This document shows positions 5,339 to 44,248 of a DNA stretch of 64,000 nucleotides, piece by piece; position 1 is the stretch's first letter; each line of letters opens with the position of its first letter. The stretch is from assembly GCF_050920415.1 (NCBI RefSeq), contig NZ_CP169309.1; one strand, written 5' to 3'. The notes under the pieces were generated by a model. It worked only from the letters and a program-made list of their open reading frames with translations, was not told the origin of the DNA and searched no databases. The DNA comes from Escherichia coli (GTDB lineage: Bacteria; Pseudomonadota; Gammaproteobacteria; Enterobacterales; Enterobacteriaceae). Both the position numbers and the translations under genes were made by a program.

Positions 5339-6391
5339 TTAGCTGTCGGCGAACTTCAGGCCAGTGACCATCGCGCACTTGCCATAGTCTTCAACGACAT
5401 AAGCGTCATTGATGGACTGGTAGGTGGCGATGCGGTTGTATTCCGGTTCGTCTTTCATCAGACGACGCATTGAACCTTTCTGCCAGTAAATCGACAGGTT
5501 GTTGAACGAGGTGATCAGCATCGTTGAATCCGGGAAGAACGGCGCAAGGAACACGCCCAGCCCGCCAATGGTGCGCGATGACAGAATGAGCTGCCCGGCG
5601 AGTAATTCCGCATTGGGATTCTGGCCGCTGATGCTGTTCAGCACGGGCAGACGCAGCGAGTTAAACAGGTTGCGCCCCATAATCACCACGAGGTCGTCAG
5701 CTTCCTTGTGCCATTCATCCAGCAGGGATGAGCGCGCGTCCTGTACCAGTGCATCAGCGTTCGCATACTTACCCGCGTGCGCCACGGTGTTGTCCATGTT
5801 ACGGGAGGTCAGCGTCACGTCATTCATAACGCGTTCGCTGGCGTCGGTTCTGATGTGCTCCAGCCAGCCCACGTTAACGTCCTGAAGCAACTTGTTGGTG
5901 CTGAAGTTAGACTCATCCGCGTGAGACGTGCCGTTGAAACCGATCATGATGCGGTCAAGTGCCACCTGTCGGGCAATCTGTGCGCTGATGCGGGACTGAA
6001 AATCAGGGTGTGCCGCCCAGGCATCAAGCTGCGGATATGAAATAAACGTGTCGTAGTTCACCTGTTCGCACTGGTATTTGCGGTTTTTCAGATCAACCAC
6101 GTTATTCGGGTTACGGCGTTTTGTGCCGTCATAACTGGTATTCGTGCGCGCAATCGGCCCGGTGGTATCCGGGAGGATTTTTTCGCCTTTCTGGTCGGTC
6201 ACGCCGATCACGTTAATTCTTTTTGTAAATTCGGTGCTTTCCTTTGAGGCGTTTTCAAAACGCTGCTGTACCGAGGGTTCCACGGTAAATCGCGATACCA
6301 GTGCGGAAACCGGGATATTGTTAAGCGACGCCTGCTGCGCCATATAGCAACCCAGCTTGTTGCGGGTAATATCTGACATCACCAGATTCAT
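5339..6391 (-). CDS. major capsid protein N
   Basis: 350-aa ORF between scaffold O and terminase M; P2 gpN-like size. Confidence 0.8.
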   Translation of the reverse strand: MNLVMSDITRNKLGCYMAQQASLNNIPVSALVSRFTVEPSVQQRFENASKESTEFTKRINVIGVTDQKGEKILPDTTGPIARTNTSYDGTKRRNPNNVVDLKNRKYQCEQVNYDTFISYPQLDAWAAHPDFQSRISAQIARQVALDRIMIGFNGTSHADESNFSTNKLLQDVNVGWLEHIRTDASERVMNDVTLTSRNMDNTVAHAGKYANADALVQDARSSLLDEWHKEADDLVVIMGRNLFNSLRLPVLNSISGQNPNAELLAGQLILSSRTIGGLGVFLAPFFPDSTMLITSFNNLSIYWQKGSMRRLMKDEPEYNRIATYQSINDAYVVEDYGKCAMVTGLKFADS

Positions 6392-39916: not shown

Positions 39917-40060
39917 TTATCCCGATTTCCTCAATTGCAATGAACCCGATGATCTGCGCATCGGGTTTTTTATGTCAATTTTGCGGTGGATGGCATCATT
40001 AATAAAGTTTCCCTCCTTCTTGCCGATAACGAGATCAACTTGTTTTCAGGAAGGTGCCTT

Positions 40061-41722
40061 ATGATTAACCGTATCCGCGTAGTCACGCTGTTGGTAATGG
40101 TGCTGGGGGTATTCGCACTGTTACAACTTATTTCCGGCAGTCTGTTTTTTTCCTCCCTTCACCATAGCCAGAAGAGCTTTGTGGTTTCCAATCAATTACG
40201 GGAACAGCAGGGCGAGCTGACGTCAACCTGGGATTTAATGCTGCAAACGCGCATTAACCTGAGTCGATCAGCGGTGCGGATGATGATGGATTCCTCCAAT
40301 CAACAAAGTAACGCCAAAGTTGAATTGCTTGATAGCGCCAGGAAAACATTGGCCCAGGCCGCGACTCATTATAAAAAATTCAAAAGCATGGCACCGTTAC
40401 CTGAAATGGTCGCTACCAGTCGTAATATTGATGAAAAATATAAAAACTATCACACAGCGTTAACTGAACTGATTGATTATCTTGATTATGGCAATACTGG
40501 AGCTTATTTCGCTCAGCCAACCCAGGGAATGCAAAATGCAATGGGCGAAGCGTTTGCTCAGTACGCCCTCAGCAGTGAAAAACTGTATCGCGATATCGTC
40601 ACTGACAACGCAGATGATTATCGATTTGCCCAGTGGCAACTGGCGGTTATCGCGCTGGTGGTGGTAATGATTCTGCTGGTGGCGTGGTACGGCATTCGCC
40701 GTATGTTGCTTACACCCCTGGCAAAAATTATTGCTCATATTCGCGAAATCGCCGGTGGTAACCTGGCGAATACCCTGACCATTGATGGGCGCAGTGAAAT
40801 GGGCGATCTGGCGCAGAGCGTCTCACATATGCAACGCTCTTTGACTGACACCGTCACTCATGTGCGCGAAGGCTCTGATGCCATCTATGCTGGCACCCGT
40901 GAAATTGCGGCGGGCAATACCGATCTTTCTTCCCGTACTGAACAGCAAGCATCCGCGCTGGAAGAAACTGCCGCCAGCATGGAGCAACTCACCGCGACGG
41001 TGAAGCAAAATGCCGATAACGCCCGCCAGGCCTCGCAACTGGCGCAAAGTGCCTCCGACACCGCCCAGCATGGCGGCAAAGTAGTGGATGGCGTAGTGAA
41101 AACGATGCATGAGATCGCCGATAGTTCGAAGAAAATTGCCGACATTATCAGCGTTATCGACGGTATTGCCTTCCAGACTAATATCCTCGCGCTGAATGCC
41201 GCGGTTGAAGCCGCGCGAGCGGGTGAACAAGGCCGTGGTTTTGCCGTGGTGGCGGGCGAAGTGCGTAATCTTGCCAGTCGCAGCGCCCAGGCGGCAAAAG
41301 AGATCAAAGCCCTCATTGAAGACTCCGTCTCGCGCGTTGATACCGGTTCGGTGCTGGTCGAAAGCGCCGGGGAAACAATGAACAATATCGTCAATGCTGT
41401 CACTCGCGTGACTGACATTATGGGCGAGATTGCATCGGCATCGGATGAACAGAGCCGTGGCATCGATCAAGTCGCATTGGCGGTTTCGGAAATGGATCGC
41501 GTCACGCAACAGAACGCATCGCTGGTGCAGGAATCAGCTGCCGCCGCCGCTGCGCTGGAAGAACAGGCCAGTCGTTTAACGCAAGCGGTTTCCGCGTTCC
41601 GTCTGGCAGCCAGCCCACTCACCAATAAACCGCAAACACCATCCCGTCCTGCCAGTGAGCAACCACTGGCACAGCCACGACTGCGAATTGCAGAACAAGA
41701 TCCAAACTGGGAAACATTTTGA
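40061..41722 (+). CDS. tar: methyl-accepting chemotaxis protein II (aspartate/maltose receptor)
   Basis: 553 aa starting [11 protein letters not shown]; C-terminal NWETF pentapeptide. Confidence 0.9.
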
Positions 41723-41767
41723 CGAGTATTGACTAACGCGGTCATTGCCGCCTGATGGGGAGCGTTG

Positions 41768-43369
41768 ATGTTTAATCGTATTCGAATTTCGACCACGCTG
41801 TTTTTAATTTTGATTCTCTGCGGGATCTTGCAGATTGGCAGTAACGGCATGTCTTTTTGGGCATTTCGCGATGATTTGCAACGATTGAATCAGGTCGAGC
41901 AGAGCAATCAGCAACGTGCGGCATTAGCGCAAACTCGGGCGGTGATGTTACAGGCCAGCACCGCGCTGAATAAAGCGGGCACTCTGACGGCGCTTAGCTA
42001 TCCGGCAGAGGACATTAAAACGTTGATGACGACGGCGCGCGCCAGTCTGACGCAATCCTCTACGTTATTTAAAAGTTTTATGGCGATGACTGCGGGCAAC
42101 GAGCACGTCAGGGCGTTGCAAAAAGAGACGGAGAAAAGTTTTGCCCGTTGGCACAACGATCTCGAACATCAGGCGACCTGGCTTGAAAGTAATCAACTTT
42201 CGGATTTCCTCACTGCGCCGGTGCAGGAATCACAGAATGCGTTTGACGTTAACTTTGAGGCCTGGCAGCAGGAGATCAACCATGTGCTGGAAGCCGCCAG
42301 TGCGCAAAGCCAGCGTAACTATCAGATTTCGGCGCTAGTGTTTATCAGCATGATTATTGTTGCAGCGCTCTACATCAGCAGTGCGCTGTGGTGGACGCGC
42401 AAGATGATTGTTCAACCACTGGCCATTATCGGTAGCCATTTTGACAGCATTGCTGCGGGTAATCTGGCGCGTCCGATTGCGGTGTATGGTCGCAATGAGA
42501 TCACCGCCATTTTTGCCAGCCTGAAGACCATGCAGCAGGCTTTACGTGGGACGGTGAGTGATGTGCGTAAGGGAAGCCAGGAGATGCACATTGGTATCGC
42601 GGAGATTGTCGCAGGCAATAACGATCTCTCAAGTCGTACCGAACAGCAGGCGGCATCGCTGGCACAAACGGCCGCCAGTATGGAGCAATTAACCGCCACG
42701 GTAGGGCAAAACGCCGATAACGCACGACAGGCGTCGGAACTGGCAAAAAATGCCGCAACAACGGCGCAGTCGGGCGGTGTTCAGGTCAGTACCATGACTC
42801 ACACCATGCAGGAGATCGCCACCAGCTCGCAAAAAATTGGCGACATTATTAGCGTTATCGACGGCATTGCTTTCCAGACCAATATTCTGGCCCTGAATGC
42901 GGCAGTGGAAGCGGCTCGCGCCGGAGAGCAGGGGCGTGGTTTTGCGGTAGTGGCAGGTGAAGTGCGCAATCTTGCCAGCCGTAGCGCCCAGGCAGCAAAA
43001 GAGATCAAAGGGCTGATCGAAGAGTCAGTCAATCGTGTCCAGCAGGGTTCGAAACTGGTGAATAACGCCGCCGGGACCATGACCGATATTGTCAGTTCGG
43101 TGACCCGCGTGAACGACATTATGGGAGAAATTGCCTCGGCGTCGGAAGAACAACGGCGGGGAATTGAGCAGGTTGCACAGGCTGTCAGCCAGATGGATCA
43201 GGTGACTCAGCAGAACGCCTCCCTGGTAGAAGAAGCGGCGGTGGCAACGGAACAACTGGCGAACCAGGCTGACCATCTTTCGTCGCGTGTGGCGGTATTT
43301 ACCCTTGAAGAACATGAAGTAGCACGACATGAGTCGGCGCAGTTACAGATTGCGCCAGTGGTATCCTGA
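41768..43369 (+). CDS. tap: methyl-accepting chemotaxis protein IV (dipeptide receptor)
   Basis: 533 aa starting MFNRIRISTTLF; signalling domain nearly identical to tar. Confidence 0.9.
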   Translation: MFNRIRISTTLFLILILCGILQIGSNGMSFWAFRDDLQRLNQVEQSNQQRAALAQTRAVMLQASTALNKAGTLTALSYPAEDIKTLMTTARASLTQSSTLFKSFMAMTAGNEHVRALQKETEKSFARWHNDLEHQATWLESNQLSDFLTAPVQESQNAFDVNFEAWQQEINHVLEAASAQSQRNYQISALVFISMIIVAALYISSALWWTRKMIVQPLAIIGSHFDSIAAGNLARPIAVYGRNEITAIFASLKTMQQALRGTVSDVRKGSQEMHIGIAEIVAGNNDLSSRTEQQAASLAQTAASMEQLTATVGQNADNARQASELAKNAATTAQSGGVQVSTMTHTMQEIATSSQKIGDIISVIDGIAFQTNILALNAAVEAARAGEQGRGFAVVAGEVRNLASRSAQAAKEIKGLIEESVNRVQQGSKLVNNAAGTMTDIVSSVTRVNDIMGEIASASEEQRRGIEQVAQAVSQMDQVTQQNASLVEEAAVATEQLANQADHLSSRVAVFTLEEHEVARHESAQLQIAPVVS

Positions 43370-43387
43370 AGTGATTGAGAAGGCGCT

Positions 43388-44248
43388 ATGACTTCATCTC
43401 TGCCCTGTGGGCAAACGTCTTTATTGTTACAGATGACCGAGCACCTGGCGCTTTCCGACGCGCATTTTCGGCGGATAAGTCAATTGATCTATCAACGAGC
43501 CGGGATCGTCCTGGCCGACCATAAACGCGACATGGTTTACAACCGACTGGTTCGTCGTTTGCGTTCGCTGGGACTGACGGATTTCGGCCATTACTTGAAC
43601 TTGCTGGAATCTAATCAGCACAGCGGTGAGTGGCAGGCATTTATCAATTCGCTGACCACGAATCTGACAGCATTTTTCCGTGAGGCACACCATTTTCCTC
43701 TGCTCGCGGATCATGCCCGGCGTCGTTCTGGCGAGTATCGTGTATGGAGCGCGGCGGCTTCGACCGGCGAAGAACCGTACAGCATTGCGATGACACTGGC
43801 TGACACATTGGGCACCGCGCCCGGACGCTGGAAAGTGTTTGCCAGCGACATTGACACCGAAGTGCTGGAAAAAGCCAGAAGCGGTATTTATCGCCATGAA
43901 GAGTTGAAAAACCTGACGCCGCAGCAACTGCAGCGGTACTTCATGCGGGGGACGGGACCGCATGAAGGATTGGTGCGTGTGCGTCAGGAGCTGGCGAACT
44001 ATGTTGATTTTGCCCCGCTGAATTTACTGGCGAAACAATACACCGTGCCGGGGCCGTTTGATGCAATCTTCTGTCGTAACGTCATGATCTACTTCGATCA
44101 AACTACCCAGCAGGAGATTTTGCGTCGCTTTGTTCCGCTCCTTAAACCCGACGGATTGCTGTTTGCGGGTCACTCTGAAAACTTTAGCCACCTTGAGCGC
44201 CGCTTCACGCTGCGTGGTCAGACGGTGTATGCGCTAAGTAAGGATTAA
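43388..44248 (+). CDS. cheR: chemotaxis methyltransferase CheR
   Basis: 286 aa, recognised. Confidence 0.9.

Follow-up and report, generated by a model that had tools for sequence, protein, structure and literature searches.

The cytoplasmic domain of chemoreceptors consists of methylation helices and a hairpin tip that contacts CheA and CheW and forms trimers of dimers, and in high-abundance receptors the pentapeptide NWETF serves as the tether for CheR and CheB. Duplicated bacterial genes can be held together by concerted evolution, as are tufA and tufB, which are nearly identical at synonymous sites. Laboratory Tar-Tap hybrid transducers were reportedly obtained by Slocum, Halden and Parkinson in 1987 via spontaneous deletion between homologous 3′ regions, and further Tar-Tap hybrids are said to have been engineered by Weerasuriya et al. 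in 1998. Both studies (Slocum 1987; Weerasuriya 1998) are cited for chimeric receptors in PMC2229510. The loss of tap in phylogroup B2 or uropathogenic E. coli is reported by Lane et al. 2006 and Borziak et al. 2013, according to PMC3559539 and PMC12623472.

The closest described system is the tar-tap pair of E. coli K-12 (b1886/b1885). It matches the window, i.e., the whole 64,000-nucleotide stretch of E. coli DNA that was analysed, in gene content and order, in gene length (1662 and 1602 nt), in the 45-nt spacer and in having cheW and cheR as flanks. The Tar and Tap proteins of the two strains are 98–100% identical, with a nucleotide divergence of about 2–3%. The similarity of tar and tap in their DNA and their duplication are already known and are ordinary biology, and the locus is the textbook pair, intact and ordinary, and the results matter little for the window itself. 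The explanation favoured here, to which we assign a probability of roughly 0.9 as a whole, is that tar and tap are old paralogues whose similarity is driven by the protein, that they show no concerted evolution, and that they are rarely fused by exchange between short tracts of identity.

The locus and the extent of DNA identity

All features described lie on the plus strand of the window. An intrinsic-terminator-like hairpin with a T run at 39942–39975, 3′ of cheW, was found by a terminator scan and in the sequence itself and probably marks where the preceding motAB-cheAW transcription unit ends. The letters at 40003–40029, 5′ of tar, read TAAAGTTT-N11-GCCGATAA, a putative promoter that we take, from the consensus of class 3 flagellar promoters, to be of the sigma-28 (FliA) type. 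The tar gene (40061–41722) encodes methyl-accepting chemotaxis protein II, a protein of 553 amino acids with TarH (PF02203), HAMP (PF00672) and MCPsignal (PF00015) domains in Pfam that scores 1195.3 bits against the NCBIfam equivalog NF011622 (cut-off 900) and whose translation ends in ...EQDPNWETF, with the NWETF pentapeptide at the C-terminus. The tap gene (41768–43369) encodes methyl-accepting chemotaxis protein IV (533 amino acids), which scores 1177.2 bits against NF007309 (cut-off 903) with Pfam domains in agreement, ends in ...QIAPVVS without NWETF, and is encoded between tar and cheR. Both identities agree with the RefSeq annotation on identical DNA, and the coordinates given for the two genes in the earlier note on this DNA are exact. 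The 99–100% protein identity to K-12 Tar suggests that the Tar of the window senses aspartate and maltose. A terminator scan of the 45-nt tar-tap spacer returned no terminator, and the two genes, which are paralogues in tandem on the same strand, very probably belong to a single sigma-28-driven operon, tar-tap-cheRBYZ, a reading that is included in the joint figure given above.

The alignment of tar with tap contains a single in-register, in-frame diagonal in the same orientation, with an offset of 1701 nt (3 × 567), and the repeat search places two blocks on it at this spacing. Block 1, in the region coding for the N-terminal methylation helix, pairs 40901–41076 of tar with 42602–42777 of tap (176 nt, 75% identity), and block 2, in the region coding for the hairpin tip and highly conserved signalling region, pairs 41102–41401 with 42803–43102 (300 nt, 77%). 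The core of block 2 is the best 200-nt segment, 41130–41330 against 42831–43031, which reaches 82.6% identity with about 35 mismatches in 201 nt, and the best 50-nt segments reach 86–88%. This similarity is far above the chance level: identity at 1400 other offsets averages 25% and never exceeds 39%. The longest perfect tract in the window is 16 nt (41294–41309, with its partner at 42995–43010) and the second longest is 14 nt (41150–41163), and the mismatches in the printed alignment fall mostly at third codon positions. The signalling domains, which the earlier note had described as near-identical or almost identical in their DNA, are about 70–83% identical, a description that fails on a best 200 nt of only about 83% and a longest perfect run of 16 nt. 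The stretch of tar that it singled out, 41130–41330, is the best 200-nt segment, and the partner that it assigned, 42810–43010, should be 42831–43031; read literally, its pairing (offset 1680) reaches 35% identity, no more than background.

Divergence of the two copies

Tar and Tap share 91% of their amino acids in the hairpin and 100% at Tar residues 366–410, with only 40–43% identical codons in the latter stretch. Synonymous divergence (dS, NG86) between tar and tap is saturated, at 1.30 for the hairpin and 1.79 for the cytoplasmic domain, and is to be compared with 1.03–1.29 between tar and tsr and 0.06–0.11 between the window and K-12 orthologues. In the cytoplasmic domain, tar has a nucleotide identity of 0.686 to tap, 0.762 to tsr and 0.690 to trg, and the fraction of identical codons at conserved residues of the hairpin is 0.55, 0.58 and 0.57, respectively. 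Similarity confined to the protein level, which the earlier note had named as the outcome that would speak against its claim, is largely what these values describe, with a tar-tap third-position difference of 0.56 and an identical-codon fraction like those of tar-tsr and tar-trg.

The number of identical codons exceeds the expectation from codon usage by z ~3 in tar-tap, tar-tsr and tar-trg alike, and in the cytoplasmic domain by z of 3.3, 4.8 and 4.1, respectively, with no excess in the periplasmic half (z ~0). The tar-tap excess is modest (z 2.6–3.3), and protein constraint alone does not account for it. Because it is also found in unlinked paralogues, it does not point to conversion specific to the tandem pair. 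All MCP genes could share a form of selection on nucleotides or codons, acting for instance through position-specific codon preference or mRNA features, that adds to protein constraint and would fit an excess present in the cytoplasmic domains and absent from the periplasmic half, but the same pattern is expected from incomplete saturation since common ancestry and the excess is weaker for tap-tsr, tap-trg and tsr-trg (z 1.3–2.3), and such a contribution appears rather unlikely.

A different proposal, made in the earlier note, is that ongoing or recent gene conversion homogenises the signalling-domain DNA of the tandem copies. The direct tandem orientation and in-register diagonal are compatible with it, as are the excess of identical codons and a 60-nt segment (40961–41020) in which identity is slightly higher within the genome than across species (0.82 vs 0.73), but the tar-tap dS of 1.3–1.8 is not below that of tar-tsr and is far from that of orthologues, tar is nearer to the unlinked tsr (76%) than to the adjacent tap (69%), the longest perfect tract is short and unlinked pairs have the same codon excess. 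The identity of tar to tap in the cytoplasmic domain is also equivalent within the genome (0.686) and across species (0.668–0.688), with no outlying segment overall in a segment-by-segment comparison, and at the sites where the window and K-12 alleles differ no tract or run matches the paralogue. Orthologues cluster in NJ trees of four enterobacterial lineages (E. coli and three other enterobacterial loci, each with a tandem tar-tap-cheR), in which the three non-E. coli tap genes are frameshifted and one aligns poorly: all positions and positions 1+2 recover a tar clade, whose sister is tsr, and a separate tap clade, and third positions keep the tap clade without separating tar from tsr. The frameshifted loci were used because a protein search with the ligand-binding half of Tap returned nearly all matches as truncated or partial; this choice biases the sample, and the frameshifts should not be read as a sign that tap is usually defective elsewhere. 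Recent or ongoing conversion is therefore highly improbable, and conversion may have occurred very long ago or over very short stretches.

The tar and tap copies evolve independently, with no concerted evolution. They resemble tufA and tufB in being paralogues of one genome with a conserved protein, and they are unlike them in their dS and in clustering by orthology. The tandem duplication invoked in the earlier note is plausible but ancient, with a split older than that between tar and tsr and than the divergence of Escherichia and Enterobacter. Taken together, the saturated dS, the affinity of tar to tsr, the cross-species identities and the orthologue trees indicate an ancient duplication, and the DNA of the 3′ halves is similar mainly because the protein is conserved and not through mutual correction of the copies. 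According to this preferred explanation, purifying selection on the cytoplasmic domain of two ancient tandem paralogues would keep their 3′ halves alike as a by-product, and short perfect tracts would remain on the one in-frame diagonal even though the copies are independent and their synonymous sites saturated.

Natural fusions of tar and tap

The suggestion that the repeat provides a substrate for homologous recombination is borne out in strains other than that of the window. A chimeric probe identified three of the 5426 complete E. coli genomes (ETEC4088, ET474 and PEC389) in which the flanks have moved together by exactly 1701 nt, through an in-register deletion that joins tar to tap. The three are wild isolates, obtained from pigs and a frog. 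Each of the three carries one intact 1608-nt ORF between cheW and cheR, and the junctions are clean, with 797–798 of the 799 informative sites fitting a single switch. Two of the fusion loci are identical (4429/4429 nt) and the third differs from both at 65 sites, so the fusions stem from two independent events. The junctions fall in tracts of 24 nt and 18 nt, lengths that were inferred by substituting K-12 for the parental sequences, and tar and tap of the K-12 type share no longer identity tracts than these two. The crossover of ET474 and PEC389 maps to 41140–41163 of the window, where a synonymous T at nt 1083 of tap (42850) reduces the 24-nt tract to 14 nt, and the crossover of ETEC4088 maps to 41005–41022, where a synonymous T at nt 951 of tar (41011) reduces the 18-nt tract to 11 nt; in these two SNPs, which break the longest tracts, the window differs from K-12.

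The fusions would be spurious if they had arisen in assembly or annotation, an explanation that could draw on the fact that assemblies can collapse repeats and that PGAP labels the hybrids plain ‘tar’. The tar and tap copies, at about 70–83% identity, are however too diverged for collapse, all three genomes are complete and their junctions clean, and identical hybrid proteins recur in many assemblies (28 and 71 contigs), with cheW upstream and cheR downstream in every contig read. Artefacts are thus highly improbable, and the hybrids are taken as genuine. They share with the laboratory hybrids, as these are reported, the architecture of a Tar N-terminus and Tap C-terminus created by in-register deletion, and they are unlike them in coming from wild isolates and in that their junctions could be placed in the 24-nt and 18-nt tracts.

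In the explanation favoured here, rare unequal exchange between short perfect tracts would delete exactly 1701 nt and leave a single in-frame hybrid receptor gene with the N-terminus of Tar and the C-terminus of Tap, by either RecA-dependent crossing-over or RecA-independent slipped misalignment. The positions of the junctions suggest that exchange depends on the length of the homology tract. Efficient RecA-dependent exchange is usually quoted as needing a perfect tract of ~20–30 nt. K-12-type sequence offers 24 nt and the window at most 16 nt, which is below this range, and the window strain would therefore be a poorer substrate than K-12-type strains. A tar-specific 400-nt segment occurs at 5386 places in 5384 records among the 5426 genomes, which indirectly indicates that extra tar copies, as expected of the reciprocal tap-tar duplication, are very rare at most.

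A separate type of tap loss affects the same locus. Most of tap is missing in about one fifth of complete E. coli genomes. The B2-type deletion removes ~1.37 kb (about 41887–43260 in window coordinates) at an imperfect 8-nt match, GAATCAGG/GAACCAGG. As it lies wholly inside tap, recombination between tar and tap is ruled out as its cause, and it differs in this respect from the fusions; tap is intact in the window strain.

Implications for the chemoreceptor repertoire

These results correct the view of tar and tap as copies kept alike by exchange, in that their similarity is old and protein-driven, with no concerted evolution, and the tracts of the window strain are too short for a good recombination substrate. 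The natural fusions illustrate, on a small scale, how tract length bears on exchange between diverged repeats, and the finding of two independent fusions labelled plain ‘tar’ could possibly help those who catalogue chemoreceptor repertoires. A more speculative reading, which we regard as doubtful, is that fusion alleles would form repeatedly in wild E. coli, each time at one of the two longest tracts, would be maintained in circulating lineages hidden as ‘tar’, and might reflect adaptive remodelling and not neutral loss, in which case synonymous SNPs like those of the window would modulate how prone a strain is to the rearrangement. If true, these lineages would have gained an aspartate/maltose sensor with a Tap tail of the low-abundance type, lacking NWETF, together with the loss of dipeptide and pyrimidine taxis.

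The tar-tap locus and its DNA repeat

On the plus strand of the window, cheA and cheW are followed by ORFs of 553 and 533 aa and then by cheR, cheB, cheY and cheZ. The two ORFs are tar (40061-41722, +; methyl-accepting chemotaxis protein II) and tap (41768-43369, +; methyl-accepting chemotaxis protein IV), identified from the reading frames, their domains, NCBIfam models and RefSeq annotation of identical DNA; the gene coordinates in an earlier note on this DNA are exact. Both proteins carry TarH, HAMP and MCPsignal domains and pass the NCBIfam equivalog cut-offs (Tar as protein II, 1195 bits vs 900; Tap as protein IV, 1177 bits vs 903), and the C-terminal NWETF is present in Tar and absent from Tap. 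A sequence scan places a terminator-like hairpin 3′ of cheW (39942-39975, +), and the perfect sigma-28-type motif TAAAGTTT-N11-GCCGATAA, read from the sequence, is a candidate promoter 5′ of tar (40003-40029, +). Its -10 octamer GCCGATAA (40022-40029) recurs at 41013-41020 and 42714-42721, inside an 18-nt tar/tap identity tract where it codes for part of QNADNA, and this match is probably a coincidence. The tar-tap-cheRBYZ genes are known to form a single operon, and the 45-nt tar-tap spacer, scanned for terminators with none found, is consistent with this arrangement. Everything on the window's own tar-tap locus is textbook and already known.

One RefSeq E. coli chromosome, NZ_CP169399.1, matches the region 39986-43369 at 100% identity and has it annotated as tar and tap; in nearly all other complete E. 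coli genomes the identity is 95-99%. As only one complete genome reaches at least 99% identity over this region, with the next best at 98.1% and most at about 97.5%, the tar-tap allele of the window is uncommon. NZ_CP169399.1 is absent from the top matches for window 1-25000. Annotation of the best-matching records places P2-family prophage genes (for capsid, portal, terminase, replication endonuclease and tail proteins) beside tyrP in this region, of which at least 80% is covered in only 223 of 5426 genomes.

A repeat search returns two blocks on a single diagonal, 1701 nt apart, namely 41102-41401 vs 42803-43102 (77% identity) and 40901-41076 vs 42602-42777 (75%). The best 200-nt window is tar 41130-41330 with its partner at 42831-43031 (82.6%), and the literal pairing of 41130-41330 with 42810-43010 in the earlier note gives 35%. 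Other offsets average 25% and never exceed 39%, so the similarity is not due to chance. The repeat described in the earlier note is therefore real and in register, with an identity of only 70-83% and the second interval misplaced by 21 nt. Its description as almost identical DNA does not hold, as identity peaks at 86-88% in the best 50-nt windows and the two longest uninterrupted matches in the window are 16 and 14 nt; in the printed alignment, mismatches fall mainly at third codon positions.

Age and independence of the two copies

Over tar aa 366-410 the Tar and Tap proteins are 100% identical, with only 40-43% identical codons. In the hairpin, the conserved signalling tip of the cytoplasmic domain (aa 349-425), they share 91% amino acid and 81% nucleotide identity, with an identical-codon fraction of 0.55 at conserved residues. 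The NG86 dS between tar and tap is 1.30 for the hairpin and 1.79 for the whole cytoplasmic domain and is saturated, compared with 0.06-0.11 for orthologues of the window strain and K-12. For tar, the orthologue dS is 0.11 over the cytoplasmic domain and 0 over aa 440-500, a mosaic typical of allelic recombination between lineages. Tandem adjacency contributes nothing to the tar-tap similarity. At the nucleotide level, the cytoplasmic domains have identities of 0.686 (tar-tap), 0.690 (tar-trg) and 0.762 (tar-tsr), tsr being unlinked, and hairpin identical-codon fractions are 0.58 for tar-tsr and 0.57 for tar-trg. Identical codons in tar-tap exceed codon-usage expectation by about 3 sd; the excess is equally present in tar-tsr and tar-trg, and so characterises MCP signalling domains in general and is not specific to the tandem pair. 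No such excess was found in the periplasmic half.

With the Tap ligand-binding half as query, a protein search led to non-E. coli loci on an Enterobacter ludwigii contig and two more enterobacterial contigs (L008 4001-5672, L009 4001-5622, L010 4001-5623), each carrying tar-like and tap-like genes and cheR in tandem. The tap frame is broken by a frameshift in each, which probably reflects sampling bias, since the search returned mainly truncated proteins. In L009, an SDF-family transporter gene sits between cheW and tar. NJ trees of a 765-nt cytoplasmic segment place tsr as sister to a tar clade, with the tap clade apart, for all positions and for positions 1+2; the tap clade persists in the third-position tree, which does not resolve tar from tsr. 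Tar-tap identity within the genome (0.686) equals that across species (0.668-0.688), and a scan of 60-nt windows for excess within-genome identity gave none that was convincing. Within the homologous region, tar of the window and tar of K-12 differ at 19 sites, with the paralogue matched by the window at 5, by K-12 at 6 and by neither at 7; the corresponding counts for 15 tap sites are 3, 3 and 8. Paralogue-matching alleles are thus equally common in both strains, and they form no tract among these differences.

Taken together, the tar/tap split predates both the tar/tsr split and these genera, and the two copies evolve independently. Gene conversion, as put forward in the earlier note, is supported by no test run and is opposed by the saturated dS, the orthologue clades and the equal within- and cross-species identity. 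In PMC4742279, a single orthologous group holds Tsr, Tar and Tap, and Salmonella is described as being without tap.

Loss of tap and natural tar-tap fusions

Of the 5425 genomes matched by the tar-tap query, 4321 align with at least 80% of its length, and in about one fifth of complete genomes the match covers only some 60%. One genome of the latter class, an O6:K2:H1 strain (L001), has tar intact, with only a remnant of tap left by a deletion of about 1.37 kb internal to tap (window ~41887-43260; junction L001 3399-3410). As the deletion lies at an imperfect 8-nt match inside tap, GAATCAGG/GAACCAGG, it is unrelated to tar/tap homology, which rules out a tar/tap exchange as its origin. It is the tap loss already known from B2 and uropathogenic strains (PMC3559539, PMC12623472).

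Fusions were sought with an 800-nt chimeric probe joining tar-specific 40500-40899 to 43230-43629, which covers the end of tap and the beginning of cheR; in normal genomes the two halves are too distant to be joined. In 3 of 5426 genomes the halves lie exactly 1701 nt closer, spanning 1429 nt, which bears out a recombination substrate, albeit a weak one. These are ETEC4088 (pig, Belgium; L005 1062-2669), ET474 (frog, China) and PEC389 (pig, Korea; with ET474, L006/L007 1062-2669), whose loci correspond to window 40061-43369 less 1701 nt. Each of these complete E. coli genomes has a single intact in-frame 1608-nt ORF between cheW and cheR, annotated 'tar' in all three, and the ET474-type hybrid, the one scanned, is called Tar by NCBIfam (1049 bits vs 900). 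When compared with tar and tap of K-12, the hybrids fit one switch from tar-type to tap-type at 797-798 of 799 informative sites. The switch lies within an 18-nt identity tract in ETEC4088 (tar nt 945-962, window 41005-41022) and within a 24-nt tract in ET474 and PEC389 (tar nt 1080-1103, window 41140-41163), the two longest perfect tar/tap tracts of K-12-type sequence. The two tracts cover 42 nt of the 765 compared, and as two random junctions would both fall inside them with a chance of about 0.3% by simple arithmetic, the placement of the observed junctions points to exchange that depends on tract length. Two independent events are indicated, since ETEC4088 differs at 65 sites from ET474 and PEC389, which show no difference from each other over 4429 nt.

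The hybrids are real inherited alleles; an artefactual origin is rejected, since the two hybrid proteins are recorded from 28 and 71 contigs and every contig read has the order cheW-hybrid-cheR. Slocum, Halden and Parkinson (1987) reportedly obtained spontaneous laboratory deletions fusing tar to tap via recombination in homologous segments. The window's own sequence is a poorer recombination substrate, as synonymous SNPs, one in tar (41011) and one in tap (42850), shorten the 18- and 24-nt tracts to 11 and 14 nt. The 1987 study is cited for chimeric receptors in PMC2229510. Of the interpretation in the earlier note, the tandem paralogues stand, as products of an ancient duplication, as does the recombination substrate, proven though weak, and gene conversion does not. 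The natural tar-tap fusions are a small by-product of the analysis.
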